Shown here: positions 7,596 through 61,915 of the stretch, one piece after another
How positions within the stretch are numbered: the stretch's first letter is position 1
Layout of the letters: every line of letters starts with the position of its first letter
Assembly: GCF_030684315.1 (NCBI RefSeq)
Contig: NC_081394.1
Location: 7,112,658 to 7,176,657, forward strand
Reading direction: 5' to 3'
Length of the DNA: 64,000 nucleotides
From: Stegostoma tigrinum
Lineage: Eukaryota
The notes under the pieces: model-generated
Told to the model about the DNA's origin: nothing
What the model saw: only the letters and a program-made list of their open reading frames with translations
Databases searched by the model: none
Position numbers and translations under genes: made by a program

Positions 7596-7780
7596 AGATA
7601 AAAATGTGTGGAGCTGGAGGAACACAGCAGGCCAGGCAGCATCAGAAGAATTGGAAAGTTGACGTTTCAGGTCAGGACCCTTGTTCAGGTCCTACTCCTC
7701 TGATGCTGCCTGGCCTGCTGTGTTCCTCCAGCTCCACACTGTGTTATCTCTGATTCTAACATCTGCAGTTCTTAATATCT
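7596..7780. mobile_element. Short palindromic Penelope-derived element (paralog at ~21556-21740)
   Basis: Arm gtgtggagctggaggaacacagcaggccaggcagcatcaga is followed by its reverse complement. Similar to the termini of the 33-35 kb Penelope element. Confidence 0.75.
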
Positions 7781-9268
7781 ATAAGAGATAAGAATGTATG
7801 GGATTGGCGAAGAGGGATAGAAAGGTATAGAGACAGATAAAGATAGAAATACAGAGATATAGATAAATAGTCAGATAAATGTAGAGACAGGGAATACACA
7901 ATATAATGGGATGCACAGAGAGAGAGAGATAGACAGAGAAGGCAAAAGCAGAAGTTGCTGAAGGGATGGAGAAACTTCTCAAACTTGCTTCTCTCCTGTT
8001 TTGGAAGTGCTTAAACACCGCGCTTTGTTGGCGACCGGACACACTACATGGGCAGCAGCGTCACCTCAACATCAACCCACAAAGGTGCATACATTAACAC
8101 AGAATCAAGCCCAATGTGAACATTGAGAAATGAGCAGTGATTAGCAATCGGACGTGTTGTTGGAATTTTCGCATTGTCTCTGTCTCTCTCTCTCTCTCTC
8201 TGTGTAACTCACTGTCTCTCTTTCTCTCTCTGTGTGCTCACTATTTTTCACTCTCTGTCTGTGTAACTCAATCTCACTCTCTCCCTCTCCATGTAACTCA
8301 CTGTCTTTCACAGTTGTGTCTGGAGACTTTCTTCCTAACTCAGTGTTTTCGATAGATTCCTCTTTTAAAAGTAAAAACCCTGCTGGGCCCAGAGGAGGCA
8401 GGTAGGAAACAGAACTCAGGCCGTTCAGCCCATCGAGGTGGTACCTACCATTCCCCAAGGATCACATGCTGATCTGATGATCACAGGCTCTGGGATTTCT
8501 CACCCTGTCCTATCAGTTGTTGTCATGGTGATGTGGTTGTCAATGGGGACCAAATTCTAACAAACCCCTCACGGGCAAAAGGTGTCACGCTCCTGTTTTT
8601 GGCAAGATTCAGATGCAGGCCAGAACAAAATAAATAAAGTAAAAGCAAGCAACATCCATTCCTAACCTCCTGTTGAGTGTTTTCATTCCACTGAGATGGT
8701 TCCTGTCATTTGGAATTGGGTCACACGCAGGTTTAAAGCCTATCGGCCACACTCTGTAATTAATAAATAAAACCATCACAGGTTCACTGACATCTGGGGC
8801 TTTCCTGACTAAATGGCAGGTCACTCACTTTAAAGGGTCACTCCGTGTCCTTTCGCTGCAGATGTTTGAGGCACCAGTTGAGGTATATTATGGCAAATTA
8901 TTGCAGGTGCTGGAATCTGCACTGAAAACAACAAATGCTTGAGATCACAGCAGGTCAGGCATGGAGAGAGGATGAGCTGATGTTTTGAGTCTAGATGACA
9001 TTTCTTCAGAGCTGGTGAAGTGCGGAGGGTACAACATTTATGCTGTGGCTGGGGGATCGAGTCAGAGTGCTGGGGGAGAAAGGATGCTGATAGTTCAGAT
9101 TAAGAGATCAGAATGTGGGAATGGCAGAATAATGGCTTGTCCAACTACCAGGGTGGAAAGAACTGACAGTTCCACTGAGGTGGGGGAATGGGGAAAGAGG
9201 ACATGATGACAGCGAATGCAACAAGTGAAGCGAAAAGAAAAGGTAGAAATGGGAGGTGGCTCACAATT

Positions 9269-9620
9269 TGAAGGTGGGGCAGCACAGTGGCTCAGTGGTT
9301 GGCACCGCTGCCTCACATCGCCAGGGACCCAGCAGCAATTCCACCCTCAGATAACTGTCTGTGTGGAGTTTGCACGTTCTCCCCATGTCTGCGTGCATTT
9401 CTGCCAGATGCTCAAAGATGAGCAGGCGAGGCAGATTGGCGACGCTCACTTACTCATAGTATCCAGAATTGTGTAAATTAGTTGGATGACCCATGGGAAA
9501 TGCATGGGTTGCAGGGAAAATCTGGAGGGATGGGGATGGATCTGGGTGAGATGCTGTATTGAGGGGTGATGTGGACTTGTGGGCCAAATGGCCTCCTTTT
9601 CTACACTGCAAGGGATTCCA
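9269..9620 (+). mobile_element. tRNA-derived SINE (HE1-like), degenerate; paralog at ~24669-25010
   Basis: A-box TGGCTCAGTGG, body gtctgtgtggagtttgcacgttctcccc, and CR1-like tail ggccaaatggcct...acactgcaagggattc. Confidence 0.75.
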
Positions 9621-9809
9621 TATAAAGTCCAGAAGTTGTAAAGTGTGTGTATGAAGAAGAGATGTTGTTCATCCAGTTTTCAGCGAAGGTTTGTAACATC
9701 AGACTTTCCAAGTTTCTCTCCCTCTGCTTGCGAGTTTATGATTGGTAGGCCAAGAGAGAGAGATAAAGAGAGACAGAAAAAGAGAGAGTGGACTGTTGGT
9801 TGAAGTCAG

Positions 9810-10127
9810 GTGTGACCAATAGAGAGAGTGGGACAGTGACTGAAGGCCGGTGTGACCAATAGAGAGAGTGGGCCAGTGACTAAAGTTCCGTGTGACCAAT
9901 AGAGAGAGGGGCCCGGTGACTGAAGGCCGGTGTGACCAATAGAGATAGGGGCCCGGTGACTGAAGGCCGGCGTGACCAATAGAGAGATTGGGCCAGTGAC
10001 TGAAGGCCCGTGTGACCATTAGAGAGAGGGGCCCGGTGACTAAAGGCCGGCGTAACCAATAGAGAGAGGGGCCCGGTGACTGAAGGCCGGTGTGACCAAT
10101 AGAGAGTGTGACCGGTGACTGAAGGCG
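9810..10127 (+). repeat. 40-bp minisatellite (8 units) with a CCAAT box per unit
   Basis: Unit gtgtgaccaatagagagaggggcccggtgactgaaggccg; the tgtgaccaat-type word recurs at 9811, 9851 ... 10091. Confidence 0.95.
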
Positions 10128-11139
10128 GGTCCAAACTAAACAGAGCGTCGGTGTGCAGGTGGCGAAAGGCAAGTTCAAGTCCCACCTGATCCACAGGTGT
10201 GTCATAACCTGTCTCGACAGGCAGTTAAAGTTACTTTAACAGGTAATCTGTGGAAATGCTGTAATTGAGCAGAGTTGAAGCACAAGTTGAACTTGAAACT
10301 TACCACTGTATTCATTCACTGGACATGGACATCACAAGCTGGGCCCAGCATTTATGACCCATCTCTAGTTGCATTATTCCTTGTTCCATAGTTACATTGA
10401 GAAGGTAATGAAGAGCTGCATCCTTGAACCACTGCAGGCCACTTGCTGTAGATTGATCTAAAATGCCATTCGGGAAAAAATTTCATCATTTTGGTCCAGC
10501 AACACTGAAGGAAAGGCGATATATTTTTGAATCAGGATGGTATTTCGAAAGGCAAACTGCATTTCTCTCTGCACAGATGCTGCCAGACCTGTTAAGATTC
10601 TCCGGTGGTCTGTCGCAGGTGTTTGGAGATCGTCACGATTCATTTTGACTTCTTTCACTATTGACAATGAACATCAAAATCGAAAATATTCTGCCCAACA
10701 TTAATTGATAAACAGAGATGGAGGGAACTGCAGATGCTGGAGATTAACTGATAAACACACTGCTTTAATGCCTCTACGTCACTGCTACAGAAGTTGTAAA
10801 CCCCGTTCTTCCTGTTTGCTTTCATCGGATTGGATTTGAATTTGGATTTGGATTTGGACTCGGGTACAGGAATATAGTGAAAGATGTACAAAGTCGCTGT
10901 CCTCCAATGACATCTTACTACACAAAGAACAGGATGAATAAACAGAGACAGAAATAAAAGTCACATAAACTGGACTTTACAGAGTGGTATTGGAAATCAC
11001 AGATTCCTCACATTGAACATTCACACAGCAGGGTCCTGTCATAATATGTGAAGGCTCCGAGACTAATTTCTGGGATGGGTGAGGACGGGGGCCAGTGTTA
11101 CATTGACACAATTGCTACATTGTCCTTCAGAGTGAGAGG

Positions 11140-11790: not shown

Positions 11791-11854
11791 TGGCCCAATC
11801 TCATTGAAAATCCAAACAGGATGAGAACAAATAGATACAGGAAAGATATTTTTG

Positions 11855-11957
11855 ATACACAAACAGAAATTGCTGAAAAATCTGAACAGGTCTGGCAGCA
11901 TTCGTTGAGAGAAATCACAGTCAACTTTTCAGGTCGAGTGATCCTTCCTCAGACCTG
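11855..11957 (-). mobile_element. Penelope terminal-repeat fragment, second family (paralog at ~27095-27196)
   Basis: acagaaattgctgaaaaa...ggtctggcagcat...gatccttcctcaga. The minus strand begins at CTGAGGA, as in the copies at 53.0-53.3 kb. Confidence 0.55.
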
Positions 11958-12477
11958 AGCATTTTGGGTGCAGGTGAGGAGAAATGCCTTCACCCAGAGA
12001 GTGATGACCCTGTGCAATTCTCTGCCATAGAAAGCAGTTGAGATCAAAACATGGAACGTTTTCAAGAAGGGGCTGTATATAGTTCTTAGGGCAACATTGG
12101 ATTAAAGGGAGGAAGTAGCAATAGGGAATTAATTTGGAAGATCAGATATGACCGCACTGCATGGTGGGATAACCAAGTCCCGTTCTTATAGTCAATGATT
12201 TTTCTATGAGGCAGGGTTGAGCAGATTGGTTTTATACACTCTGGTGTTTAAAAGATGATGTTATTACCTTATATAAGATCCGAACCAAGTGTGACAATGT
12301 AGATTCTGCGAGGATGCTTCCTCCCAGAAACTAGGGCAAGGGGGTGCAATTAAAAATGAGGGGACATCAATTGAAAACGTGGTCTTTCTCTGACATTCAC
12401 TCACCTTTGCACTTCTGTTCCCCAAAGCGCTAGGCCATTGAACATATTCAAGGTTGAGTCAGGTTTATGATTTAGGT

Positions 12478-13545: not shown

Positions 13546-13715
13546 CCATCTCTTCCTCCATATATGTGTCACTCGGGCGGTCCTCTCTCTGTCCCCCACA
13601 CAGCCGGAAAAAGACCATTGAGTCTGTCTTGGTCTACATGTGTCCCACTTTCCAGCACAAGGCCATAGCCTTAAATGCTGTGCAACTTCAACTGTTCATC
13701 CAAGTGTTATTTTAA

Positions 13716-13917
13716 AGACTAACAAATTGTGGAGCTGGATGAACACAGCAGGCCAAGCAGCATCTCAGGAGCACCAAAGCTGACGTTTCGGGCCTAGACC
13801 CTTCATCTGATGTCAGCTTTTGTGCTCCTGAGATGCTGCTTGGCCTGCTGTGTTCATCCAGCTCCACACTTTGTTATCCTGGATTCTCCAGCATCTGCAG
13901 TTCCTATTATCACTGAT
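13716..13917. mobile_element. Short palindromic Penelope-derived element; the paralog at 28956-29156 has an 11-bp TSD
   Basis: Inverted arms fold at gacccttcatc|tgatgtcagc. In unit B, TTATTTTAAAG flanks both sides (28945-28955 and 29157-29167). A related host repeat without the insertion is at ~31610. Confidence 0.85.
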
Positions 13918-13954
13918 ATTATTTTTAAGGTTGCCAGGTTTCCTGCTTCAACTA

Positions 13955-14177: not shown

Positions 14178-14188
14178 TCCCCGTGTAT

Positions 14189-14355: not shown

Positions 14356-14668
14356 TATAACATTTATAGCTCCAGCGTAGGCATACCATGCTGTCTCAGC
14401 CTGAGTTGTGAAACGTTGAGGAAACTTCTTAAGTTTGCTTCAGTCTTACTTTGCTTGTGTGGAAACACCGCCCTCTCTTGGCGACTGGACACATCTACAC
14501 AAGCAGAGGACAGCGTCTCGTCGTGTTCCATCCGCAATGGGACATGCTGCTGCACAGCCTCAAGACCAATATGTACATTGAGAAATGAGAGATGATTAGC
14601 AAAAAGGCTACTGCCAGAATGTTGACATTGTTATTAAACATTTGCTTCTGTACATGGGCAGCTTCATT

Positions 14669-14796
14669 TTGATGAAGGATCTGGGCCCAAAACGTCAGCT
14701 TTTGCGCTCCGAATATGCTGCTGGGCCTGCTGTGTTCATCCAGCTCTACACCTTGTTATCTCAGATTCTGCAGCATCTGCAGTTCCCATCATCCCT
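14669..14796 (+). mobile_element. Single-arm Penelope terminal fragment with 8-bp TSD
   Basis: Starts at (t)tgatgaaggatctgggcccaaaac. GCTTCATT at 14661-14668 and 14797-14804. Confidence 0.75.
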
Positions 14797-20791: not shown

Positions 20792-22719
20792 CATATGGAT
20801 TGAGCAGAGGAGTCATATAAACACAGAAAGTAGGATTGGGGGTAGGCATTCAGTGCTTCAAGCCTGGTCTGCAATTCATCATCATGATGGCTGATAATCA
20901 AACTCAGTCCCCTGTTCCTGCTTTCTTCCCCATAGCACTTCCCCACGGTGCTAAAGATGGATCTCTTTAGCTCTAAGGACTATATCTATCCTCTTCCTGA
21001 AAACAGTCGATGTTCTCTTCTTGACAGTTTTCTGTGGCAATGCGCAGCGCATTGGCTTCTGCTGTTGCTGATGTCTGATTTGGTTGTAAACTGGCAAAAG
21101 AGAGGCAGACGCTTGCGAAGGGAGTATGGAGAGTCTGTTCAGGCAGACAACGAGAGAACAAGAGGACAGCCAGAGCTACAAATACATAGAAGCCCATGAG
21201 GCAGAAAGAGATATAAAGAGCGATAGAAAGCAAAGAAACACATAGCAGAACCAGTAAGGTAGAAGGGTGAAGAGGGATACCAGGCACAGAGACTGATAAC
21301 GAGATGAAGACATATTGACTGATTTAGAGAGATGGAAAGGCAGACAAACAGACAGCGAGGGATAGAAAGGGAAAGAGACAGATAAAGTGAGATAAAAGCA
21401 CATAGGCTGATAGAGAGGAAGAAAGAAAGATGGTTAAAGAGAAATAGGAATGCAGAGAAACAGAAAAGAGAAATAGAAAAGCAGAGAGACTCAGCAGGAG
21501 AGACAGAATGTCAGAGAGCCTGCTAAAGAGATAGAAAAGGCAGAGACAAGTAAAGAGATAACACAGTGTGGAGCTGGAGGAACACAGCAGGCCAGGCAGC
21601 ATCAGAAGAATAGGAAAGTTGACGTTTCAGGTCAGGACCCTTCTTCAGGTCCTACTCCTCTGATGCTGCCTGGCCTGCTGTGTTCCTCCAGCTCCACACT
21701 GTGTTATCTCTGATTCTAACATCGGCAGTTCTTAATATCTATAAGAGATAAGAATGTATGGGATTGGCGAAGAGAGATAGAAAGGTATAGAGACAGATAA
21801 AGATAGAAATACAGAGATATAGATAAATAGTCAGATAAATTTAGAGACAGGGAATACACAATATAATGGGATGCACAAAGAGAGAGAGATAGACAGAGAA
21901 GGCAAAAGCAGAAGTTGCTGAAGTGATGGAGAAACTTCTCAAACTTGCTTCTCTCCTGTTTTGGAAGTGCTGAAACACCACGCTCTGTTGGCGACCGGAC
22001 ACACTACATGGGCAGCAGCGTCACCTCAACTTCAATCCACAACGGTGCATACATTAACACAGAATCAAGCCCAATGTGAACACTGAGAAATGAGCAGTGA
22101 TTAGCAATTGGATGTGTTGTTGGAATTTTAGCATTGTTTTTAAATATTTACTTTTGCACACGGGCAGCTTCAAGCATCTGGTTTTTCCTTCTCTTCCAGA
22201 AATGAGAAGCTTTTGGAAATCTAAAACTTCCATTTTCTTAAAGAAGCTTAATTGTTTAAATGTTGCAGTGATTATTGAAATATACATAATAGAGGACACC
22301 CTTTGGTTTCTGTTTTTCTATCTCTCTTTATGTATCTCTCTCTGCTTTGCTTTCTCTCTTATCAGTCTGCCTGTCTTTATTTCTCTTCTCTTTACCTGTT
22401 ATTCTGCCTGCCTTTCTGTCTATCCATATTTATCCATCTGCCTTTCTATCTTCCTTTGTCAGTATTTTTGCCATTCTATCTCTCCTTTCTATCTCAGTTC
22501 ATCAGTTTTGCTGCCTCTGGTTCTCCTTCCATATATCTATCACTCAGTCTGTCCTTTCTTTCTCTCTCTGTAACTGCTGGAACAGATCATTGATTCAGTC
22601 CTGACAAAAATACATGATTACCTACATTAGTGCCACTTTCCAGCACTAGGCCCATAGCTTTCAATGTTGCGCCACTTCAAGTGCTCACCTAAGTATAAAT
22701 TTAATCTGTTCCAAGTCGT

Positions 22720-28300: not shown

Positions 28301-31300
28301 TCTGTCTCTCCACACAATATATTGTGAGGGGTGCAGGCTCAGTACTCAACAAGTCGTCACACGCTGTGGGAATTGGCTGTTATTCTTCAATCGAACCATA
28401 GCTCCTTCAGCAATCTGAGAGTGCGGACAAAGCATTGTTTTAACTTTTCATCCTCTTCTCCATCTCTCTTTTTCTGTTTATCTGCTCTTCTATACATCTA
28501 CATCAATCTGTCTGCCTTTCTACCTTCCTCTGTCAGTCTTTCTGACTTTCCCTCTTGCCTTTCTTTCTCAGTTTACCTTTAGATGAGATTAGATTAGATT
28601 CTAGGCAGAGTGGAAACAGGCCCTTCAGCCCAACAATTCACTCACCGCCCCTTGGAGCATCCCACCCACACCCATTCCCTTATAACCCGCACACCCCTGA
28701 ACATTATGGGCAATTTATCATGGTCAATCCACCTAGCCTGCACATCTTTGGACTGTGGGAGGAAACCAGAGCACCCGAGGAAACCATCTCTTCCTCCATG
28801 TATGTGTCACTCGGGCGGTCCTCTCTCTGTCCCCCACACAGCCGGAAAAAGACCATTGAGTCTGTCCTGGTCTACATGTGTCCCACTTTCCAGCACAAGG
28901 CCATAGCCTTAAATGCTGTGCAACTTCAACTGTTCATCCAAGTGTTATTTTAAAGACTAACAAATTGTGGAGCTGGATGAACACAGCAGGCCAAGCAGCA
29001 TCTCAGGAGCACAAAAGCTGAAGTTTCGGGCCGAGACAATTCATCTGATGTCAGCTTTTGTGCTCCTGAGATTCTGCTTGGCCTGCTGTGTTCATCCAGC
29101 TCCACACTTTGTTATCTTGGATTCTCCAGCATCTGCAGTTCCTATTATCACTGATATTATTTTAAAGGTTGCCAGGTTTCCTGATTCAACTAACCTCCCT
29201 CGGAGGGTCTGTGTCTGTGTGTGTGTGTGCGCGCACGTGTGTCTCTGTGTGTCTGTGTTAAGATGTGCAATGAAAGAATGATTGAAAATCTTAGGTACAA
29301 TGTCATTGGAAATCCAAAACACCAATTTTGTTCAAAATGCTTAAATGTTTAAATTGCATTGATCATGGAAACATACAGTTTCTTTGGCTTCCCTTTTCCT
29401 CTCTCCCTGCCTTCCCGTCTATCTTTATCAGGCTGCCTGCTTTTCTGTATCTGTCAGGAGCCGAGTAGGCAGTGTTTAGACTCCTCAGCCTGGAACTTGT
29501 CAATGCGCTCAGTTTCTCCACTCCCCTCCCCTCCTTTTTCTTCCCCTTTCATCTTTTTTAAACATTTTAAAATGTTTTTTTTCCTGCTGGGAAAACTTAA
29601 CTTGGAGCAGTTAAGATCCAAAGTGAAGAGGGCTCGAAGCCTGGAGCAGTGCAGAGTTCTGGAGGCCTGGAGCAGTGCAGATTGGGCTAGAGGCCTGGAG
29701 CAGTGCAAAATCAGCTGGAGGCCTCGAGCAGTGCAGATTGGGCCAGAGGCCTGGAGCAGTGCAGAGTCAGCTGGAGGCCTGGAGCAGTGCAGAGTCAGCT
29801 GGAGGCCTGGAGCAGTGCAGATTGGGCCAGAGGCTTGGAGCAGTGCAGAGTCAGCTGGAGACCTGGAGCAGTGCAGGGTCAGGTGGGAGGCCTGGTGTGG
29901 TGCGCTGTGGGCTTGAGGCCTCGAGCAGTGCAGCGTGGGTGGCAGCCTGGACCGGTGCGGTGTGTGCTGGAGGACTGGAACGGCGCAGAGTGGACTGGGG
30001 ACTTTTAGGGCAGTGTGCGCTTGTGAGGCCTGTCAGACCCTGTTTGGAAATGCAGCACTGAGCTACTACAATGTAATGTTTATCTGTAATTTGTTCATCT
30101 GACTGTGATGTTCATCTTTGTTATAGATGATGCAAATATTTCAGCTGGGGGTCTTGTAATTTCCTCCCTGACTTCCAACAATGTTCTGGGATACGTTACA
30201 TCAGCTCCTGAAGATTTATCCACCTTTATATTCTCTGAGACTCCCCAAACTTCCTCTTCTGTAATGTGAACTGTTTTTAAAACATCAATGTTTATTTCTC
30301 TGCATTGCCCAGTATCCATTCCTTTCTCCACAGTAAAATCTGTTGCAAAACATTCAGCTAATATCTCTCCCATCTCCTGGGGATCATCACAAAGATGATC
30401 TGTTCAGTCTTTCAGAGGCTTTACCTTCTCTCGAGTTACTCTTTTGCTCCTAATGTATTTGTAGAATCTCTTTGAATTATCCTTAACCATATCTACATTT
30501 CTCTTTTATTCATTAATGGAATCAGGATGTCACTGGCTGGGGAGTATTTATTGCCCATCCCTAATTGCCCAGAGGATAGTCGAGCATCAACTACATTGCT
30601 ATGGGCCTGGAGTCACATGTAAAGCAGACCAGGTAAGGATAGCAGTTCCCTTGTCTAAAGGACATTAATGAACCAGATGAGTTTATTTTTCCTGACACTT
30701 GGCAGTGGATTCATGGTGATCATTAGATTCTTAATTCCAGACATTTTATTGAATTCAAATTCCACCATTTGCCACGGTGGGATTTCAACACGAGTCTAGA
30801 ATGTTATCTGGGTCTCTGCACTAACAGACTCGCGATAATACCACTAGGCCATCGCTAATGCTATCTCACATACCGTTTCTACTCTCCTGATTTCTCTCTT
30901 AGGAATGTCCTTTCACCCTTTACATTGATTGAGATATTCAATTGAACCAAGTTGTCTCTTTTATTCTTAATGAGAACATCAATATCCTTATTTATCCATT
31001 GTTTGGAGGGATATGTGCCAGGAGCTGGCAGATGGGACTAGTTTATTTGGGATTCTGTTCAGCATGGACTGGTTGGACCGAAGGGCCTGTTTCTGTGCTG
31101 TCTGTCTGAATGACTTTATGTCTTATCTTCCAACTTGCACTATGAATCACTGAAAGGTAATATTACTTATTTTCTTTTTATTCCTCTTTTTATATCTACG
31201 ATTTGTATCTCAGATGGTGCCCTGAGCGGTGACATTGTAAACTTTTCACAGTAGTCCTACTCCTGTACTTGAGTGCACATGATAATAAAGGATATTCTAA

Positions 31301-32976
31301 TCCCTATTTACCTCTCTTTTTCTATCTCTCTGACTTTCTATCTCTCCTTGTTAATCTCTCTGCCTTTCTCTCTTCCTTCATCAGTCTTTCTGCTGTTCTC
31401 TCTCTTCTTCATATCTCAGTTTATCAGTTTTTCTGCTTTTATTGTTCCTTCCATATATTTATCACCCAGCTGTCTCTCTCTGTCTCTAACTACCAGAAAA
31501 GACCATCGAGTCTGTCCTGACCAAAATACATGGTTACCTACATTGGTCCCACTTTTCAGCACAAGGCCAATAGCGTTGAATGTTGTGCCAATTGAAGTGG
31601 CTCATCTAAATGTTATTTTAAAGGTTGTGACATTTCCTGCCTCAACCCACCTCTCAGGCAGTGCACTCTGTACCATCCCGCCTCCTGACCTTTGGGTGAA
31701 AAATATTATCAAAGCTTTCTTCCCACTCCCTTTCAAACTTACACTTGAATTTAGGATTCCCACAATGAGATTTTACCATGTTAACTATCAATAAAAGATG
31801 AACATTCCAATAACACTTTCAGTTCAATAACGTTTCTGTCCCAAGTCGTGAAACTACTTGCTTTCAGCTCTGGATGAGATGCATTTCTGTTAATTAGGTG
31901 AATCCACTTTGATCTCATCTCCATTTAATTGCAGCATATTCACTGTGTTCCTCTTCCTGGGCTGGAAGACCAGGTTTGCAAACATTGAAGACACAGACAG
32001 AACCTCCTCACTGTCATCTGACCTGGCCTATGACAGAAAACCATGTGTTAGATATGGATCTGGTGGGACAGATAGGAACCTGGACCAGGAGTGTATCTTG
32101 CAAATGTTACAACCAACACAAGGAGCGACCAGAAATCTCCAAGACCAACTGCAGCTACTCACCGAAGCTCCCCTGGCAACACTTCCAAACCCATGGTGTC
32201 TACCGTCCAGAAGGACAAGGGCATGTGAAGCATGTGAACACCATCCCTTGCAAGCTCCCTGCTGAGCAACACACAATCCTGACTTGCAATTACATCACCA
32301 TTCCTTCCTTGTGTTTGGATCAAAAGTCTGGCTCTGCCTTCTTCATAGCATTGTCCGTCACTCCAAAGACTGTAATGGCTCAGGAAGAAAGCACCTCGCC
32401 ACATTATCCAGGGCAACTGGAATGGGCAATAATTGCCAGCTGGCCAAACTAAGTGATGCCCAAAGGCCTGAACAAATTGATAAAAAGTAAGGCACAGTAC
32501 AATGTGACATAACTATGCAGCTCAGCAAAGAGGCAAATGTTGGACGGTGGCACAAAAGACAATGTATTTCAATAGGTGAATGAAGGGGTCGTAGGAATTT
32601 GTACATGAATGAAGGAAGGGCAGGAGAGATGGCTGATACCGTTGGATGGTTCCATCCGCAGATGTCAACGTCCCTTTGCCAGCATCGCCTCATTGTTGGA
32701 AGTTTAAGATCAGCTCCAAGGAATAGCATGGGTGGTAAGAAGAACAGCTTTTGAGAGGTCCTACTAATATGTCTGGAGTAACACCCACTCAGCACAGTGC
32801 TGTGTGGTGCCTGCAGTTAGGAATAAATCACTGCTCTCCTCCGTGTCCCCATCTACAGCCCTAAGCTTCTGCAATTAGGTTGCAAGTCAGATTTAATGAT
32901 AGATGTGATGGTTTTTATCATCCTGATTCTGGGCTATATGGGCAGATCCAAAGAACAAACACTGCAATAAATGTCA

Positions 32977-35242
32977 GAGATAATGGGAACTGCAGATGCT
33001 GGAGAATCCAAGATAACAAAGTGTGGAGCTGGATGAACACAGCAGGCCCAGCAGCATCTCAGGAGCACAAAAGCTGACGTTTCGGGCCAAGACCCTTCAT
33101 CAGAGAGGGGGATGGGGAGAGGGTTCTGGAATAAATAGGGAGAGAGGGGGAGGCGGACCGAAGATGGAGAGTAAAGAAGATAGGTGGAGAGGAGAGTATA
33201 GGTGGGGATGTAGGGAGGGGATAGGTCAGTCCAGGGAAGACGGACAGGTCAAGGAGGTGGGATGAGGTTAGTAGGTAGGAAATGGAGGTGCGGCTTGAGA
33301 TGGGAGGAAGGGATGGGTGAGAGGAAGAACAGGTTAGGGAGGCAGAGACAGGTTGGACTGGTTTTGGGATGCAGTGGGTGGAGGGGATGAGCTGGGCTGG
33401 TTGTGTGATGCAGTGGGGGGGAGGGGACGAACTGGGTTGGTTTTGGGATGCAGTGGGGGAAGGGGAGATTTTGAAGCTGATGAAGTCCACATTGATACCA
33501 TTGGGATGCAGGGTTCCCAGGCGGAATATGAGTTGCTGTTCCTGCAACCTTCAGGTGGCATCATTGTTGTGCTGCAGAAGGCCCATGATGGACATGTCAT
33601 CAAGAGAATGGGAGGGGGAGTGGAAATGGTTCGCGACTGGGAGGTGCAGTTGTTTGTTGCAAACCGAGCGGAGGTGTTCTGCCAAGCGGTCCCCAAGCCT
33701 CCGCTTGGTTTCCCCAATGTAGAGGAAGCCGCACCGGGTACAGTGGATGCAGTATACCACATTGGCGGATGTGCAGGTGAACCTCTGCTTAATATGGAAA
33801 GTCATCTTGGGGCCTGGGATAGGGGCGAGGGAGGAGGTGTGGGGGCAAGTGTAGCACTTCCTGCGGTTACAGGGGAAGGTGCCGGGTGTGGTGGGGTTGG
33901 AGGGCAGAGTGGAGCGAACAAGGGAGTCACGGAGAGAGTGGTCTCTCCGGAAGGCAGACAAGGGTGGGGATGGAAAAATGTCTTGGGTGGTGGGGTCGGA
34001 TTGTAGATGGCGGAAGTGTTGGAGGATGATGCGTTGTATCCGGAGGTTGGTGGGGTGGTGTGTGAGAATGAGGGGGATCCTCTTTGGGCAGTTGTGGCGG
34101 GGGCGGAGTGTGAGGGATGTGTTGCAGGAAATGCGGGAGATGCGGTCAAGGGCGTTCTCGACCACTGTGGGGGGAAAGTTGCAGTCCTTGAAGAACTTGG
34201 ACATCTGGGATGTGCGGGAGTGGAATGCCTCACCCTGGGAGCAGATGCGGCGGAGGCGGTGGAATTGGGAGTAGGGGATGGAATTTTTGCAGGAGGGTGA
34301 GTGGGAGGGGGTGTATTCTAGGTAGCTGTGGAAGTCAATTGGCTTGAAATGGACATCAGTAACTGCCTGAGATGGAGACTGAGAGGTCCAGGAAGGTGAG
34401 GGATGTGTCTGCCTTCCGGAGAGACCACTCTTTCTGTGACTCCCTTGTTCGCTCCACACTGCCCTCCAACCCCACCACACCCGGCACCTTCCCCTGCAAC
34501 CGCAGGAAGTGCTACACTTGCCCCCACACCTCCTCCCTCACCCCCATCCCAGATCCCAAGATGACTTTCCATATCAAGCAGATGTTCACCTGCACATCTG
34601 CCAATGTGGTATACTGCATCCATTGTACCTGGTGTGGCTTCCTCTACATTGGGGAAACCAAGCGGAGGCTTGGGGGCCGCTTTGCAGAACACCTCCGCTC
34701 GGTTCGCAACAAACAACTGCACCTCCCAGTCGCGAACCATTTTAACTTACCCTCCCATTCTTTAGATGACATGTCCATCATGGGCCTCCTGCAGTGCCTC
34801 AATGATGCCATCCGAAGGTTGCAGGAACAGCAACTCATATTCCGCTTGGGAACGCTGCATCCCAATGGTATCAATGTGGACTTCACCAGCTTCAAAATCT
34901 CCCCTTCCCCCACTGCATCCCAAAACCAGCCCAGCCTGTCTCTGCCTCCCTAAACTGTTCTTCCTCTCACCCATCCCTTCCTCCCATCTCAAGCCGCACC
35001 TCCATTTCCCACCTACTAACCTCGTCCCACCTCCTTGACCTGTCCGTCTTCCCTGGACTGACCTATCCCCTCCCTACGTCCCCACCTATACTCTCCTCTC
35101 CACCTATCTTCTTTTCTCTCCATCTTCGGTCCGCCTCCCCCTCTCTCCCTATTTATTCCAGAACCCTCTCCCCATCCCCCTCTCTGATGAAGGGTCTCGG
35201 CCCGAAACATCAGCTTTTGTGCTCCTGAGATGCTGCTTGGCT
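32977..35242. mobile_element. Penelope-like retroelement: two 5'-truncated copies joined head-to-head, 17-bp TSD
   Basis: The minus copy (34404->32977) encodes the RT C-terminus (TDVHFKPIDFHSYL...KNSIPYSQFHRLRRICS) and a GIY-YIG endonuclease (VVYCIHCTRCGFLYIGETKRRL...EH). The plus copy (34405->35242) repeats the endonuclease and 3' end. CACTGCAATAAATGTCA at 32960-32976 and 35243-35259. Confidence 0.93.
35184..35208 (+). ncRNA. Hammerhead-ribozyme-like core in the Penelope terminal repeat (mirror copy at 33079-33103, minus strand)
   Basis: CTGATGA-A-GGGTC-TC-GGCCC-GAAAC gives both conserved catalytic boxes and a stem II. Penelope elements are known to carry minimal HHRs. Stems I and III could not be resolved by eye. 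Confidence 0.55.
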
Positions 35243-36257: not shown

Positions 36258-36503
36258 AGATAGTAGGAACTACAGATGCTGGAGAATCTGAGATAACAAG
36301 GTGTAGAGCTGATGAACACAGTAGGCCAACTGATGTTTTGGGCCTAGACCCTTTTTCAGAAAAGGCCCTTTTTCTGAAGAAGGCTCTAGGCCTGAAACGT
36401 TGGCCTTCCTGCTCCTCCGATGCTGCTTGGCCTCCTGTGTTCATCCAGCTCCACACTTTGTTATCTTGGATTCTACAGCATCTGCAGCTCCCATTATCTC
36501 TGA
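36258..36503. mobile_element. Short palindromic Penelope-derived element
   Basis: Two ~110-bp inverted arms meet at ...ttttcagaaaaggccctttttctgaaga... Confidence 0.85.
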
Positions 36504-43149: not shown

Positions 43150-43373
43150 CAGACAGCATAGTGTGGAGCTGGAGGAAAACAACAGGCCAGGCAGCATCTG
43201 AGGAGCAGAAATGTTGACGCTTCACGTTGGGACACTGCTTCATTTTTTGATGAAGGGTCCCGACCTGAAATGTCAGCTTTCCTGATCCTCTGATGCTGCC
43301 TGCCTGCTGCGTTCCTCCAGCTCCAGGCTGTGTTATCTCTGACCCCAGTATCTGCAGTTCTTGCTGTCTCTGA
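43150..43373. mobile_element. Short palindromic Penelope-derived element
   Basis: Inverted arms meet at cttcattttttgatgaagggtcccgacctgaaa. Confidence 0.8.
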
Positions 43374-48000: not shown

Positions 48001-49771
48001 AGAGAACCCGTGGATTTCTGCCACTGGTGGGGTAATCAAACATACATGGGATCTCCACAATTGACCCGCTTACTGCCAAGGCATTCCAGGGAACCTTCAC
48101 AGCCCATCGTTAACTATGGACAGCTGAAAAAGGAAAATCGGCTAGATTTCCAGTGAACTCTGTGACAAGAATCAAATTAAACTATTCCATTAAATGACAG
48201 TCAAAAACTGTGAACTCAATTTTCTCAAACATTTGCAATTACATAGATACCAATAACAACAACATACATATCAAATTATGGTTGAGAATCTACAGACATG
48301 ATGAAAGGTCCTTCTGAAGAAATTGAAGTAGGTACTAACAATTAATAAACTCCAATGAAAACACAGAATGAGGTTCACAGTGAAAGTGTCTGTTCATTAA
48401 CTCAGACATCTATCCATGAATATTTATATACTCAACTAATGCAATATTCTTACCCAGAATTTCCAACAACAGCTTCAGACATGGATAAATTTTTCCAAAG
48501 TTCAGTAACTCTGAAAGATAATGTCGTACCTTTGTCAAGTAACAGAACGAGAGAAAGGAACACTGCAAACTGCGTCACCGTGGAAGATGGTGAACTGTTA
48601 TCTCAGGTGGATTGAAGATGAAACCAATCCCAGGAAGATTCTGCTCTCTGGTAATAGATCACTTATTGATCAGAATCGAATCCGAGTACGGGGAGATCAG
48701 CTGCTAGGCAGACTGGAGGAATGGGAATCATGTTCCGTCTGAAAGCTCACTCACCTTTAGAGACCCCCAGGGCTGCTGCTAATCCTGTCAAGCAGATACA
48801 GTATGATGCTGGGAGTGAGAGCATCCCCCACTTTACAGGGCACCATGCCAAAAACAAAGACAAAGATCTGGACCAATAAACTGGCATTTTCCTGTCATCA
48901 GTCATAAGGCAGGAACTGAACTTCAGATTCAGTTACTAAGAATAAACCTGACCACAAAGTTTAGTCATCGATCTCATAAGTTATATCTGTTTGCCTGTCA
49001 ATGCGTTATAAATGTTCTGTTGCGGTTGATGGTGACACAGAGCACTCTTTTCACACCTTCAGCTGTCCAGGCAAAAGGCTGTAGCTCAAATGCCAGTGAT
49101 ATAAGAGGTGTGTGTTTCTTTTTACAGGAAACAGTTTAACCCAGTCTATGTGCTATATTTTTAGGTATGGCGTTCGGTCTTCACAGCTTGACTGTCACCT
49201 TAGAAATTGGGTCAGGTCAACAGGTCCGAGCTGCTGCAATCACAGTTTTGTGCTTTTTTTTCGATTTGGAGACATTGCTTTGTGTTTTTCGTTTCCAAAG
49301 TATCACCGGATGTAACTGGGGAAACGATAGCAATGGTGAGTGGAAGTGAGAAGCAATTGAGAGATCTGTCGGCACCTTCCAGTTACTCCTATCTGGTGTA
49401 ACTTGCATTTCCCAACGTTCCGGTCTCTGAGACGCTGGATGAGCTCCAATGGGAGTGTTTGATCCCAGTCCGAGCTCAGTGTACGGGAGATATAGGTTCA
49501 ATCCTCACTAAGACGGTGTGTTCGAAATTTAATTTGAAAAATGCTAGAATTGAACACTCACCTCCGTGACCATGAAACAACTTTTCTTTTTTTTCCTTTT
49601 GTAATTACTATCTGTTTGATGGTTAATCAGGAAAACTCCCGTCAATAGTAATTCTGACCCGCAGTTGTGTGACCGAGTCTTATCAAATTTCTGAAATGAC
49701 CGGAAAAATCGGTCAGATTAGAAACGATTCACGCTGGGTGCATCAGCGAGTCAACAGTCTGTAAAATACTT

Positions 49772-49903
49772 TCAGAGACAGGAGGAACTGCAGAAGTTGG
49801 AGAATCTGAGATAACAAGGTGTAGAGCTGGATGGACACAGCAGGTCCAGCAGCATCAGAGGAGCAGGAAGGCTGACCTTTCGGGCCTAGACCCTTCTTCA
49901 GAA
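49772..49903 (-). mobile_element. Single-arm Penelope terminal fragment (similar at ~60458-60570)
   Basis: The minus strand begins TCTGAAGAAGGGTCTAGGCCCGAAAG and ends at the ...tctctga terminus. Confidence 0.75.
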
Positions 49904-50115
49904 ATGAATTCTGAATTCTTCCGAATTGCATTCTCCCTTTCTTATAGGAAGAACTGGAGAAGGAAATCAAAATTTTCTGAGCTGAAAAGTCCGTAAGCGG
50001 GAATGAAACACATAATGACAGGGATAATTTGAGAATTGAAGAGGTAAGGCAATTGTCTCATGAAAATCAGGGGCACTTGAAGCAGAAAAGGGAAATGCAA
50101 CTTGTGTAAAGTGTG

Positions 50116-50251
50116 AGATAACAAAGTGTGGAGCTGGATGACCACAGCAGGCCAAGCAGCATCTTAGGAGCATGATGCTTGGCCTGCTGTGTTCATCCAG
50201 CTCCACACTTTGTTATCTCGGATTCTCCAGCATCCGCAGTTCCCATTATCT
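50116..50251. mobile_element. Short palindromic Penelope-derived element with degenerate 15-bp TSD
   Basis: Inverted arms. CTTGTGTAAAGTGTG at 50101-50115 and CTTGTATGAAGTGTG at 50252-50266 (13/15 identical). Confidence 0.75.
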
Positions 50252-53020
50252 CTTGTATGAAGTGTGCTTCACTTTGATCAATTAAATAAGGAATGGAGTG
50301 TTCATTGACTCTGCTCCGAAGCAACGTTAATTCGAGATCCTCACTGTCTTATCGCGTGGGACTGATTCAGATCCGCCATTTGTTTTTCTCTTCGTTGGTC
50401 TAATTTGCTTCCCATAACATTGGGTGACAGGTACCACCATTTCTACCTGTCCTGCTGATTCTTACACATTTCCCTTTGGATAACCGCCACAAGTCTGTTA
50501 TATTCCTCATCCACTTTTAGTTCTTCTCCCCTTCCCTCTTGTGTCCATCAAGCTTCACGTTCAAATGACGGTCTAATTTAATTTCAGGGAATTGATTGCA
50601 CCAGCTTCCACCACACTCTCAGGCAGTTCATTCCACATCCTAATGGAGCATGCTCTGAGGGATATTCTCCAATGTTGCTTCTGCCTCTCTTCCCAGGACG
50701 TCAGGACAGATGTATGAAGAAGGAATGGATCATTTAGCACTGTATTCACTGGAGCTTAGAAGAATGAGAGGGAGACCGAATAGAAACCAATACCATTCTA
50801 AAAGGGCTGGACAGTGTAATTTCAGGAGGAACGTCCAGCACCAGGGGATCTAAGATACGGGGTAGGCCATTTAGGACTGAGATGAGGAGAATTTTTTTCA
50901 CCCAGAAGCTGTGGAATTCTCTGCTACAAAAAGGGCTTGAGGCCAAGACATTGAATATTTTCAAGAAGGAGATAAATATTGTTCTAAGGGCTAAAGGGAT
51001 CAAAGGGTACTTTGAGATAAACTGGGATCCAGGAACTGAGTTGAATGACCAGCCACGTTCATCTTGAATTGTGGAGCAGACTCTAAGGGCTGAATGGCCT
51101 CCTCCTGTTCCTATTTTTACTGTTTCCCAGTGGTTCTAAACATGGTCCCTCTGCTTCTCATTCCCTTAAGCAATAGAACTCATTCATCCTCTTTGTTCTC
51201 CCCGACACCCCATGATACTGAATACCACCCTCTTCTCAAGGAGGAAAATGAATACTTGTTTCGCCAGTGATGCTCATGTCCCACAAGTGAATAGTAGTAG
51301 TTTTATTTAAAAAAAACAAATTTCATGTTTTATTCTTTATATCTGATATCCTCCATTATAATGCTTGTATAACTGCCCTTATAATCAGCAAGCAGGAGCT
51401 TTTTATTCTCTTTGTCTGCCTTTTCAAAATGTTACATAGATTTGAAAATTAAGTTACCAGTCTTGGTTATGCTGCAGTCGTTTTTCCATAACTGAAATTA
51501 CATCTTACCAACTCACAGATTCCCTGAAATCATCTGCTGAATTGTGATAATTGCATGCATTCATGGGCAGTGTTCCAAATAGATTTTTTTTGGTATTATT
51601 CTGTATTGTAATATTAACTGACGCTCCCCTTTGTTTTTCCAACTTTCTAACTTTATTTCCCACCTTCACACTTCTTGTTAGTTCTTGTTCGCCAAAATTA
51701 GGAAATTGGTTGAGTGCCAGGCAACAGCCGATCAGGATGACAGGTAGGTACTCAAATTAGCAGGAGGTAACTGGGGTCCCACAAGGATCTGTATAAGGGC
51801 CTCAGTCATTCCTATTTCCAAATTTGCTGATTGCACAGTTAGGTGACATTGTAGACAGTGTAGTTCATAGCATATAATTACAAAGACATATTGATATTCA
51901 ATGTAAATGGACAAGCAGTTGTGGAAGCAAGGTCATTGGGGTCATTTAAGAGACTGCTGGACATGTATATGGTCACAGAAATTTGAGGGTGCATACATGA
52001 GGATCAATGGTCGGCACAACATTGTGGGCTGAAGGGCCTGTTCTGTGCTGTACTGTTCTATGTTCTATGTTCTAAGAATGTGGTAGATGGACTTTAATAG
52101 AAATATTGCCCTCATTAGTATTCAAAGTGGAAATTCGGTTAGAGACCAATAAACTCCTGTGGGGCATGACTGTTTTTTTAATTTATTCACAGATGTAAGT
52201 GTTACTGACTACACCACTATTATTGCTCATTCCTAATTGCCCAAGTGGAAGTTAAGAGTCAATCACATTGCTGTGCATTTGGAGTCATAACTCGCCAAGA
52301 TCAGATGAGGATGGTGGATTTCCTTTACAGAAAGATATCGGTGAGCCAGATATTTTACCCAGCTCCAGCTTCTTCCAATGGCTTCATTGTCATCAATAGA
52401 CTATTATTTCCAGAAGACAGTTAAAAAAATAAATTAAAATTCCAACTAGTGTCTTAGATAGCTGGTTGGCCATCCTTCTTTACTGTACCTGCATTTGCCT
52501 TATGTGTGATTTGGATACCTCCATAATCATGATATCAATGTAATTCTTTATATCATGGATGCAGAATGGTGGTTACACCCATTGATCCAGCTCTGAAATA
52601 TGGGAGCTGAAACCTGTTAAGCCAGTGGCATTCCCTTCATTTAGCTAGGACACATATTGCATCCATGACTCCACACATATTGCGAGATATAGCTGCCACA
52701 TGATCAAGCTGACCTACCATATAACAACTTTTAAAGCAACTTATTACAATAAGGGTACTGCAGAATAATTTCCTGTTTGTGCACCAGTTTCTTCTCCTGC
52801 ACAAAGCTAAAAGTCAAATACCTTCAAACTCCATCTTGCTCTCCAAGTTTACACTCCCTATACTCAAAGCGGTGCTCAGTTCACTCCAATTACTTTCGCT
52901 GACTTGTTTGGCTCGACTTGTCTCCAACAATTTTGACAGTGGAACCTACAAGAACAAATCTATTGTCCCAGGTCAATGCTCTTCCTTTTTGCAGGGGTGG
53001 CTTCAATGGGCATTCCAGCA

Positions 53021-53302
53021 TCCAACATGAACAAAAACAAAGTTGTTGGAAAAGCTCAGCCGGTCTGGCAGCATCTGTGGAGGAAAAAAACAGAATTAAC
53101 ATTTTGGGTCTGGTGAACCTTCCTCAGAACTGAGCATCTGTCATTACCAGTTTTCCTGGGTCCAACATGAACAAAAACAAAGTTGTTGGAAAAGCTCAGC
53201 AGGTCTGGCAGCATCTGTGGAGGAAAAAAACAGAATTAACATTTTGGGTCCGGTGAACCTTCCTCAGAACTGAGCATCCGTCATTACCAGTTTTCCTGGG
53301 TC
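53021..53302 (+). repeat. 140-bp perfect-period tandem duplication containing a Penelope terminal fragment
   Basis: tccaacatgaacaaaaacaaag starts at 53021 and 53161, with few mismatches between units. Confidence 0.92.
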
Positions 53303-58486: not shown

Positions 58487-59060
58487 TAGAGAAACGCTTC
58501 TGAAGGATCTCAATGTTCTGAATGTAGACATTGTCACATTTGGGAACAAACTGGGAAGGCCTGAATGTGGACTGTAGTCCATTGGGTATAATCTGGTTCT
58601 GTAGGCAGGTGCTGAGGAAGGTGATGTGGCTGTAGTGCCTGGTTTGCTTCAGGATGTGGTCGAGCAGTTTCAAGGTCAAAGAGATTACAAGCGAGTTGCA
58701 GTGGGAGAGAGATCCACCGAGGTTTTTTTCCGGATGGAGGAGGGTAACTTCTTCAAGGTAGGCATCCTTAGAAGAGGCTTCGCAGTGGGGTTAAAATTGA
58801 TTCAGAGATAGTAGGAACTGCAGATGCTGGAGAATCTGAGATAACGAGGTGTAGATCTGGATCAACACAGCAGGCCAAGCAGCATCAGAGGAGCAGGAAG
58901 GCTGTCGTTTTGGGCCTAGACCCTACTTCAGAAAAAAAGAAGGGCCTAGGCCCGAAACAACAGCCTTCCTACTCCTCTGATGCTGCTTGGCCTGTTGTGT
59001 TCATTCAGCTCTACACGTTGTCATCTCAGATTCTCCAGCATCTGCAGTTCCTACTATCTC
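58487..59060. mobile_element. Penelope insertion: terminal repeat plus probable ORF N-terminus (minus), with an inverted terminal repeat and 12-bp TSD
   Basis: Palindrome 58803-59060 folds at cttcagaaaaaaagaag. The left arm extends into decayed coding sequence (MPTLKKLPSS...LKLLDHILKQTRHYSHITFLSTCLQNQIIP). TGAAAAGTCACA at 58475-58486 and 59061-59072. Confidence 0.8.
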
Positions 59061-61527
59061 TGAAAAGTCACAAATCATTTCTCTTCACCATGCAGTGCGT
59101 GTATTGACTGGAGATATGAGGATGAGAGGAGTACTCCTCGGAGCATGTAGAATTCTGACTGGGCTTGACAGACTGAACACAGGGACAATCCAGAACAAGG
59201 GGTCATGGTCTCAGAGTCTGGGTGAGCATGGAATTCTCTCTTATAAAGGTTGGACATGCAAAGTAATGGAATATGTTTAAAAGCGAAACAGCTTTCTAGA
59301 GGCTTCAAGCGTTAAGGGTAGTTAATGTGATTGAAAAAAAAAGTAGCTTGACAAATTATGGGAACATTAGACCTTCAAACCTACCAACTATGTTCAGCTA
59401 TTCAAGTAAGTTGTATCTTAGCATTTTAACATTGTTGCACCAATGTAATCCTTATTATCATCACTCTAAAAAGAATCTGCCCCGCTCGGTTTAGAAAGTT
59501 CATTTTTCCAGGTGACCTCATACTTCACTGAACTTTAAGACAAAATCTGAAACAGTTTCCTGACCGAACTAGTGTACAAAACAGAAAGAAGGTATGTTAT
59601 AGTCTGAGAGCTCCCAGGGTCTGCAAACTGTGTAGAATGGTCGGGTGGAAGACTGCCATGCAATTCATATTGTGAGCACCAAAAATTTGCATTGATCTGT
59701 TCCCTTGAACTTTATTTATGACATAGAATGTACATAGTAAAAATACGGCATATTACATATTTTATTAATTTGCTTACAGTATGTGGGTTCTACCAGCCAG
59801 GCTACATTTGTTTCCTGTCCACAACTGATCCTCAGGGAGGTCGGTGGTGAGCTGCTTTCTCGAGCTGCTACATTCCATGTGCCGTAGGTAGTCCCACATT
59901 GCTACGAGGGGGAAAGCTCTGGGTTTTTGAGACAACATTAAGAAAGTTAATGTATTTCCAAAACAGGTGAGTACCTTGGAGGGGAACTTGCGGCTGGTGA
60001 TGTTCCCATGTATCTGTTCTCCTTACTTTTTAAAATGGCAGTGGAAGGAATCCTGGCGAATTTCTGCAGTGCATCTTGCAGATGGTACATCAAGCTGCCT
60101 CTGAATATCTGAAGGAGAGTGAGTGAATTCTTGGGTGTGTGGTGTCAAACATGTGGGCTGCTTTGTCCTGAATAGTATTAAATCTGTTGAGTGTTGTTGG
60201 CGCTGCACTCAACCAGGCAACGGGGGAGGATGTCGTCATAATCCTGATATGCTTTGCAGTCGGTGGATGTGCTTTGAGGAGTCAGGAGGTGAGGTATTCA
60301 CTGGAGCAGTACCAGCCTCTTGACTGCTCTTGTAGCCACTGTGTTTTTATGGCGAATCCAATTGAGTTTCTGGTCAATGCTAACCCTCTGTACATGGGGA
60401 ATTCAGTTTGATTCAGGCCACAAATAGTTAAACTCATGGAAACAAACAAATTGCAGGAGGTAGTAGGAACTGCAGATGCTGCATAATCTGAGACAACAAG
60501 GTGTAGAGCTGGATGAACACAGCAGGCCAAGCAGCATCAGAGGAGCAGGAAGGCCGATGTTTCAGGCCTTAGAGAGCCACTGCAGCTGCACTTGAAGGTC
60601 AGTTAGAGCGGTTAATACTCCTCTATCTTATGAGGTTACTGCTGTATTCTGAAAGGCGCATTGTCTACTAATCTTCCTGTGCAGCAGAGTGAGGATGAGT
60701 GATTTATGTAGCTCTAGCAGAATAATAAAGTTCGCAGCCTAGAAGCCATTTGTTGCTAATTTGCATTGAGAAGCCATCGTGTGCCTGTATCCAAGTTTCT
60801 TATTTATTACTACATCTGCCACAATGGTCCTTCGCCTCGGCTTGACCCCATTAAGTCATGCTAGGCCTTAATTCTATGTTACATGCTTTAATTAACCTAA
60901 TTAAGCTGCCGTTAATAACTCACCTAGGTGTCCTACCTTAGTTTTACAGGCCAATTGATAACTTTCTTACATTCCAATGAGACATTGTGAAGCTAATGTC
61001 TAAACGCTCACAAGCTATAGCTCAGCCCCAAAGCCCTTTAAATTCCCTTCGATCTTATGCAAATTGCAGCAAATATTGTATGTGAATTCACAAAAAATCA
61101 ATGTAAGGACTCAACAATTTTTTTAATCAAACCGCAGAAATAGCCTGTTTAAAACCTTACCAATCTTCAACTACCCGCAAATATTGCGTGTAAAAAATAT
61201 GTATTTACCCACGCGCTGACATTAACTTAGATATATTATTTTAGAAAAATCACTACACCTTATTAAGTTTCAGGATGAGACAGATTAACATTATCATGTC
61301 CATGATTTGAACAGTTTCACCATGTAAGATGCCCTGGAAAACGAGAATAAAATAGCTGTGGTTATCTTTGAGTGGTACCGAAAGGTTATTTTCTCGGCGC
61401 CGTAGATATCTCTGACTCCAGAAATAACAATGATCTCTTGCAGAAGCTGCACCAGATTTATCTTCCAAAGAGTGGGCACATTTCACGTTGAAGAGGAAGT
61501 AAAAGATAATTGCGACTATCCTCCCCC

Positions 61528-61537
<10 letters not shown>

Positions 61538-61586
<49 letters not shown>
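61538..61586. repeat. (CA)n microsatellite
   Basis: Directly visible. Confidence 0.95.
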
Positions 61587-61588
<2 letters not shown>

Positions 61589-61715
61589 GCAATGTACAGA
61601 AATCCACATGGCTTTGATTACAGAGCCCGGGTTTCAGATTAGGGTATGGTGGACCACTGGTAATGTGAAGGAGACAAACTGGACAGGCAGGCTAATGTGA
61701 GGGACTAAGACAGAA

Positions 61716-61915
61716 ATCCATGGAGAAACTCAGCAGATCTGGCACCAAGTCTGAAGAAGAGTCACGCTAGACTCCGAATGTTAAGCTGTTTCTCTCTGCA
61801 CAGATACTATTCTGGAGAAAACCTATCTGATTCATCTCTGAACAGTCAAAGCAAGATCGAAATGTTAACTATTTCTCTGTCCGCAGGTGCTGATAGATCT
61901 GCTGAGTTTCCTCCA
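61716..61915. mobile_element. Degenerate palindromic Penelope-derived element, third family
   Basis: ggagaaactcagcagatct ... agatctgctgagtttcctcc inverted ends. Internal CTGAAGA-A-GAGTC-acgcta-GACTC-CGAA at 61751-61778. Confidence 0.55.

Follow-up and report, generated by a model that had tools for sequence, protein, structure and literature searches.

We analysed 64,000 nucleotides of Stegostoma tigrinum (NC_081394.1, positions 7,112,658 to 7,176,657 of the forward strand; hereafter the window, 64 kb of a 3.2-Gb genome), in which a preliminary description made from the letters alone had seen short hairpins and single arms built from the ends of Penelope elements. The repeat is present at every site named there, and its ascription was right: the repeated 130 nt are the ends of a Neptune/Nematis-type Penelope family, a parent copy of which, absent from that description, lies at 32974-35241. 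With coordinate zero set at the C of the CTGA(N)GA box of a hammerhead ribozyme, on the element's sense strand, the short copies (stubs) share a 5' edge close to the box, and we favour, with moderate confidence, the reading that they are complementary DNAs (cDNAs) run off the leader of the Penelope RNA from two internal starts of the reverse transcriptase (RT), primed on both strands of the target. The parent copy, of family A1, has the following features, the roles of the TATA-like box and of the RNA start being putative.

32974..35241: long head-to-head Penelope insertion, with a 17-bp target-site duplication (TSD), 32960-32976 / 35243-35259; left arm (minus strand) with the 3' part of the open reading frame (ORF), GIY-YIG, 3' untranslated region, promoter-like boxes, hammerhead and tail to +129; right arm (plus strand) ending at +57
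33132..33137, minus strand: TATA-like box at -34
33107, minus strand: predicted RNA start at -4, TCT-like initiator
33072..33107, minus strand: minimal type-I hammerhead (CTGATGA box from 33103, helix II, GAAA, palindromic helix III)
Between 33076 and 33075, minus strand: predicted hammerhead cleavage
32974..33011, minus strand: tail, the stretch between the 3' ends +92 (33011) and +128 (32975)

The frames of this copy gave weak Pfam matches to GIY-YIG. Walking upstream led to a 947-amino-acid frame at another locus (L067) with RT, cysteine linker and GIY-YIG, in which the RVT_1 (E 5e-5) and GIY-YIG (E 0.003) matches were both below the curated cut-off and the DKG and YIDD motifs were spotted by eye; a CX2-5CXXC linker, as defined in PMC8557442, was seen ahead of the endonuclease in the translations. 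A single ORF with RT and C-terminal GIY-YIG is the mark of an endonuclease-containing (EN+) Penelope-like element (PLE), and a partial tandem pseudo-long terminal repeat (pLTR), an inverted copy, a one-sided tail and a TSD were all present. Judged by domains, linker and structure, the elements are the termini of a Neptune/Nematis-type EN+ Penelope family. Besides the window copy, 27 of 30 loci retrieved with the parent protein had two head-to-head arms, their 3' ends lying mostly at about +91 on one side and about +128 on the other.

Full-length copies carry, in order, the TATA-like box, the hammerhead, the tail and, at +166, the ATG of an open frame some 1090 codons long, and 11 of 29 copies with the N-terminal ORF extend through leader and hammerhead into a truncated upstream copy. 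Since the ORF-bearing copies show the leader ahead of the ATG, the 130 nt serve at once as 3' end of the insertion and as leader of the ORF, a dual position that a pLTR is expected to give (PMC8557442, PMC2377424). This connection was obtained through protein searches, a common downstream sequence having been sought among 176 long-ended arms of the genome sample described below with none found; through it, the left arm at 58803 in the window was found to run into the ORF, to +447. Many of the frames of about 1090 codons were open and 95-100% identical in protein to the queries (L184-L212, L213-L242 and further protein matches), and by these many open, near-identical copies the A1 family was recently active. 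Internally deleted copies among L213-L242 often retain the 5' part to +367..+530, a set biased by a query that demanded +166..+346; the retained part is perhaps a cis signal downstream of the RT starts.

Mapping of 24 arm pieces gave the following hairpins and single arms in the window.

7596..7782: hairpin, family C/B; left arm 0 to +93 (minus), right arm +33 to +126 (plus)
21554..21742: duplicate of the 7596 hairpin; minus-strand core matches the strict hammerhead descriptor
13716..13914: hairpin, family A2; left arm -1 to +90, right arm +25 to +125; TSD about 11 bp
28954..29152: duplicate of the 13716 hairpin; TSD 13 bp, one mismatch
36256..36503: hairpin, family B; left arm -6 to +128 lacking +30 to +53, right arm -8 to +127
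43151..43373: hairpin, family C/B; arm starts +1 and -3, ends about +90 and about +130
50087..50253: hairpin; fold-back at +36/+46, downstream of the hammerhead
58487..59060: 575-bp insertion (58803 site); left arm (minus) starting at about -3, crossing tail and ATG (58765) and reaching about +445/+447, right arm +3 to +129; 12-bp TSD, 58475-58486 / 59061-59072
61704..61919: D-type arms, old composite; short inverted arm, then two direct pieces; weak alignments
11850..11958, minus strand: single D-type arm, start -6; duplicate at 27089-27200
14667..14796, plus strand: single A2 arm, -2 to +127; TSD 8 bp
49764..49906, minus strand: single B arm, start -5, end +129 or a few bases beyond
53027..53273, minus strand: D-type arm in two tandem copies, start -6
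60457..60569, minus strand: single B arm, +14 to +127

The hairpins and arms thus stand at the places first given for them, but their number does not. The 7596 and 21556 hairpins are two copies within one 1.1-kb duplication (96% identity), those at 13716 and 28956 are copies within a 4-kb duplication (97%) that also carries the single arm at 11855 to 27089, and 53030/53170 is one arm carried in a tandem local duplication of 140 bp, so that the nine listed hairpins represent seven independent events and the single arms five; the insertion at 58803, moreover, is not a mini hairpin. Arm starts fall within -8 to +3 in 6/7 hairpins (for one arm or both; 61716 weakly; the exception is 50116, at +36/+46) and in 4/5 single arms (the exception, 60458, starts at +14), in keeping with the earlier observation that most truncation points fall near the CTGA box. 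At 7596 and 13716 one arm starts at the box and the other at +33 and +25, respectively. Weaker TSDs than those listed were seen at 7596/21556 (9-12 bp, overlapping the element end), 50116 (7 bp, weak) and 49772 (weak), and a TSD search at 36258, 43150, 61716, 60458 and 11855 found none. More decayed arms, absent from the preliminary description, lie at 10529-10754, 25785-25992 and 57842-57926. The computed hairpin folding energy was -136 kcal/mol, and on folding alone the hairpins are a possible source of hairpin double-stranded RNA.

Break positions were then mapped genome-wide in 152 evenly spaced 10-kb stretches (1.52 Mb, of which 10,000 bases are N), which yielded 543 arms, 529 of them alignable to five subfamily references carrying upstream sequence. 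Excluded were arms that scored low, reached a locus end, broke beyond +60 or had a 3' end short of +85, which left 192 arms of A, 119 of B, 25 of C and 135 of D2. The upstream rates of D2, an older family (82% identity) with a reference built on six copies, are less sure. By rough extrapolation the genome holds about 1.15 million arms and about 0.2 million short pairs. In family A the break rate per nt was 0.0446 at -8..0, 0.0143 at +1..+11 and 0.0024 at +12..+27, with 0.0005-0.0012 throughout the upstream bins; the -8..0 bin was also the highest in B (0.109), C (0.105) and D2 (0.120). Taken together, A, B and C had 103 breaks in -8..0 vs. 14 in -100..-9 (p ~1e-75), so the breaks cluster at the box and are not uniform. 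Among ORF-bearing copies, one has its start at +3 and in two the sequence skips from -2 to an internal site, and the window insertion at 58803 starts at the box and continues into the ORF.

The hammerhead itself is real and of the known minimal type (PMC4209133), as judged from its sequence: CUGANGA, helix II, GAAA, A15.1-U16.1 and NUH are all present, and a strict descriptor gave 117 matches in the 1.52 Mb vs. 0, 0 and 0 in three shuffles, with 3 in the window. An Rfam search of the window (E up to 5) returned generic microRNA-hairpin matches below the gathering score and no hammerhead model. Helices II and III were part of the selecting descriptor, and MAFFT misaligned helix II in six family G rows, so only helix I counts as independent covariation. 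Its inner pair 2 was formed in 40/41 rows (UA 16, CG 12, UG 10, AU 2) and pair 1 in 38/41, with pairs 3 and 4 in 20/41 and 14/41; the stem covariation noticed at first sight is thus borne out by compensatory changes at the two inner positions, the counts of which are inflated by kinship among the rows. The descriptor also exposed two further hammerhead families, G (L006, L008, L061, L063, L072, L084, L091, L111, L126, L151, L163) and H (L015, L019, L071, L087, L106, L172), which differ from the others in helix II, H also having a swapped helix III pair. GIY-YIG-like sequence lies upstream of G copies and RT-like sequence upstream of one H copy.

Head-to-head joining was examined in 104 adjacent pairs of the sample. 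A TSD of at least 8 bp, mostly of 10-17 bp, flanked 53/103 pairs vs. 3 when the right end was shifted as a control, indicating, with the window TSDs, that the hairpins were inserted as units, as had been proposed. Among the short pairs, 84/100 had an arm break in -8..+11, 47/100 had both there, and the combination of breaks was distinct in 91/100; junctions of family A pairs were distinct in 32/35. In A and B, 57/68 pairs join one short (+92) end with one long (+128) end, and the +92 end is also found in unpaired arms, several of which, single at first sight, have an inverted stub of 10-25 nt within their TSD. The less truncated arm may be the one or the other, several junctions overlap on palindromic bases while many others have gaps or inserted pieces, and some (L005, L092) contain ORF-start pieces that stubs do not carry. 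The short pairs form a continuum with kb-long inverted pairs having the same two ends. Junction diversity, pairing and TSDs together indicate that the hairpins were likely joined afresh at each insertion rather than amplified from one palindrome.

Every family has an AT-rich TATA-like box amid pyrimidine-rich or mixed sequence. In A1, A2, B, C and D2 it lies at -33..-36, with an initiator- or TCT-like motif at -4/-5, and it lies at -38/-39 in H and at -46..-48 in G (by the usual definitions of the TATA, initiator and TCT motifs). A start 31 nt beyond the TATA position predicts edges of -4 in A-D2, -8 in H and -16 in G. In H (20 arms) the most upstream short-copy breaks were at -8, -7, -5 and -5, with two more at 0 and none between -58 and -9; G (46 uncut arms) had breaks at -17 and -16, and 3/39 fell in -8..+11 as against 148/270 in A, B and C. 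The 5' edge is thus likely an RNA polymerase II (Pol II) start, as predicted from these sequences. The RNA would begin about 4 nt ahead of the hammerhead box, RT would start internally at +92 or +128 and run off the RNA 5' end to leave a stub, each strand of a staggered cut would prime one copy, and the two copies would be joined head to head; the hammerhead would lie at the edge as the part that is transcribed first. Both-strand priming and internal starts are likely by likeness to an Anolis relative, whose PLE protein in vitro cuts and extends both strands and starts internally, at sites that match genomic tail ends and require RNA downstream of them, independently of ribozyme cleavage (PMC11167929). 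Start sites have been mapped inside the pLTR in D. virilis and in Chlamydomonas elements (PMC2377424, PMC8557442), and a TATA box and initiator were noted in a rotifer Penelope pLTR (PMC3846280).

Several observations weigh against a Pol II start at the edge. The edge is spread across -8..0 and is not a single base; the G and H samples are small, the two upstream G breaks coming from the same single locus; and the strict initiator pattern was found in 1/4 H and 0/4 G copies. A cap-derived extra G was not significant at the edge (32 G vs. 27.3 expected) or at exactly -4 (9/25, p 0.2), and the 5/7 in family A1 alone is a post hoc figure. The D. virilis Penelope promoter is described as TATA-less and internal (PMC2377424). 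Finally, cDNAs that had crossed the ORF start break at the edge in 3/31 loci vs. 68/156 first-pass arms (p 2e-4); these usually read through the edge, so a single linear capped template cannot explain the long copies. Assembled contigs of four runs on 32974-33400 had loose ends at 33011/33012, 32975/32976 and 33104 and were uninformative on RNA starts.

The unit had earlier been attributed to self-cleavage or RT stalling at the ribozyme and to mobilisation in trans, attributions that the breakpoints and junctions speak against. Self-cleavage as the source of the template 5' end of the main stub class agrees with the conserved core and its covariation, but by standard numbering the predicted cleavage site lies between +27 and +28, where a cleaved RNA would begin. 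The main pile lies about 30 nt (28-36) upstream of it, with the whole ribozyme copied, and so does not come from cleavage unless the RNA is cut at a non-canonical site; none of the Anolis RNA reads ended at the site in the part of PMC11167929 concerned, and we consider this origin very improbable. Family A does have a minor peak: of its 36 breaks between +12 and +60, 17 lie in +28..+35 (p 1e-5; best-window p 3.5e-4), 4 of them exactly at +28. The peak is not significant in B/C (7/30, p 0.19) or D2 (6/35, p 0.51), and joining could be favoured by a T run and a 4-base palindrome with which it overlaps. Cleavage of templates is a real but less than even possibility for this peak, which may instead reflect joining at the T run. 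If RT, copying a longer RNA, stalled or dropped off where helix I of the folded hammerhead ends, this would explain why in A-D2 the edge falls on the 5' strand of helix I (-1..-4), and breaks are raised across +12..+27 in D2 (0.0107/nt). However, helix I is only 2-4 bp, the enzyme would meet helix II first although breaks in +12..+27 are rare in A, the pile is missing from family G despite its having the same core, cDNAs past the ORF start mostly traverse the same structure, and the minimum-energy fold of the isolated leader lacks helix II, all of which make stalling improbable. A G-rich cDNA stop upstream of the box was also considered and rejected, D2 having the same edge without C runs.

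In the Arkhipova 2013 model, put forward for head-to-head PLE inversions (PMC3846280), a single cDNA or antisense template folds back and primes itself while the endonuclease fixes the second end, and the junctions overlapping on palindromic bases would suit this model. It fits poorly with the less truncated arm being either one, with the many gapped or insert-bearing junctions, including those with ORF-start sequence, and with the short +92 end being shared with unpaired arms, and we hold it to be as doubtful as stalling. The idea that a roughly 120-nt unit or palindrome, like a miniature inverted-repeat transposable element (MITE) or short interspersed nuclear element, was amplified in trans as its own family could draw on the great abundance of the copies, extrapolated to about 2 x 10^5 short pairs, and on the TSDs. 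Set against it are the distinct short-pair junctions, the ORF-start pieces in some of them, the continuum with kb-long pairs and the stubs' want of the TATA-like box and of sequence past +128; the ends are unequal and the termini come from an RT element rather than a DNA transposase family, which is not the make-up of a MITE. We regard this as the least credible of the explanations.

If the stubs are leader run-off cDNAs, the long copies would need another route, probably a tandem or circular RNA as template or else an efficient template jump, as PMC4209133 proposes. A fuller, retrovirus-like scheme would combine a TATA-driven start a few bases ahead of the hammerhead, a dimeric RT that makes two strong-stop cDNAs, from +92 and +128 and on both strands of the target, and, for the long copies, a jump to the other end of the RNA or a ribozyme-made circle; we put it forward tentatively and think it rather unlikely. 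Two arrays were met in the same searches. A retrozyme-like one (L243 1412-7099, ~126.926-126.932 Mb of G000:C4), inserted in another Penelope, opens with a partial unit, continues through eight units of 655 nt (-247..+408) that all contain the TATA-like box and the hammerhead, and closes with one that stops near +100; four variable columns are common between units, and its origin as a pure rolling-circle product is weakened by these shared variants, which point to some later DNA duplication. The other (L244 1953-2896; L239/L240) repeats a 424-nt unit, -2..+422, and ends at +94. Where its units meet, +422 is joined to -2, the predicted RNA start. Internally deleted units at L217, L218/L219, L237, L239/L240 and L241 have one junction repeated inside a single insertion.

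Retroviral minus-strand strong-stop DNA is a short cDNA ending at the RNA 5' end, and L1 twin priming makes an inversion from two primers on one target; here copying would be target-primed, with no tRNA primer and with two fixed internal starts, and there is no poly(A) tail. EN+ PLE insertions are described with an inverted 5'-truncated pLTR, an optional 30-40 bp tail and a TSD (PMC3846280, PMC8557442), and the present ones are alike in head-to-head arms, one-sided tail, TSD, partial tandem before full-length ORFs and the CX4CXXC-type linker before GIY-YIG of the Neptune/Nematis type. They differ from those accounts in that stubs of 90-135 nt are the most frequent product and have a fixed 5' edge, common to several families; neither this edge nor its shift with the TATA-like box was found described in the literature searched, which included few subscription journals and, in part, the accounts cited. 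Known PLE minimal hammerheads share the type-I core, the extra base before helix II, G10.1-C11.1, the palindromic 15.2-16.2 and the occurrence as dispersed singles and close opposite-strand pairs 100-700 bp apart; the singles are ascribed there to truncated PLEs without breakpoint maps, and in A-D2 helix II measures 4-5 bp here. In PAc Poseidon of Anolis, too, the tail is defined by two start regions that lie downstream of the hammerhead, and both strands are cut and extended, whereas its ORF begins inside the ribozyme (ATG at +166 here) and run-off at a start site was not seen in the parts of that account covered (PMC11167929). Non-LTR retrozymes (bioRxiv 10.64898/2026.07.22.740005, in the part covered) are likewise PLE-derived, non-coding and hammerhead-bearing and form head-to-tail arrays, whereas the window stubs are single or inverted; head-to-tail units with a hammerhead each were not found among them, 53030/53170 being a local duplication, and are found in L243 and L244.

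Apart from the Penelope copies, the window holds two copies (4976-5932 and 19283-20257) of an intronless frame of the rhodopsin family of G-protein-coupled receptors (7tm_1, E 5e-21 for the first), in a rearranged segmental duplication of ~2.7-17 kb / 17-31.5 kb. Exons with immunoglobulin (Ig) domains lie on the minus strand at 41756-58200 (V-set / CD22-like at 47735-48109, with similar frames at 41756, 45024 and 57826); these are probably one multi-Ig gene whose introns hold several stubs. A 5S rRNA-derived sequence (40113-40223, minus strand, 48 bits) stands beside a 391-bp inverted duplication of 99% identity (39083-39473 / 40372-40762).

The elements are ordinary debris of a known class and not a new mobile family: their structure is the shortest form of the known PLE insertion, to which the edge adds a testable mechanistic footprint. 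The position of this edge near the hammerhead likely marks what is transcribed first, and not a cleavage or a block to copying. The footprint bears on how pLTRs, inversions and the one-sided tail are made and on the role of the hammerhead in Penelope, subjects raised in PMC8557442 and PMC11167929, and about a million arms give base-level predictions for the RNA start, the RT starts and cleavage. Were the retrovirus-like scheme true, the roughly one million stubs would be failed template jumps, and in the +28 peak germline cleavage by the ribozyme would have left a fossil trace.

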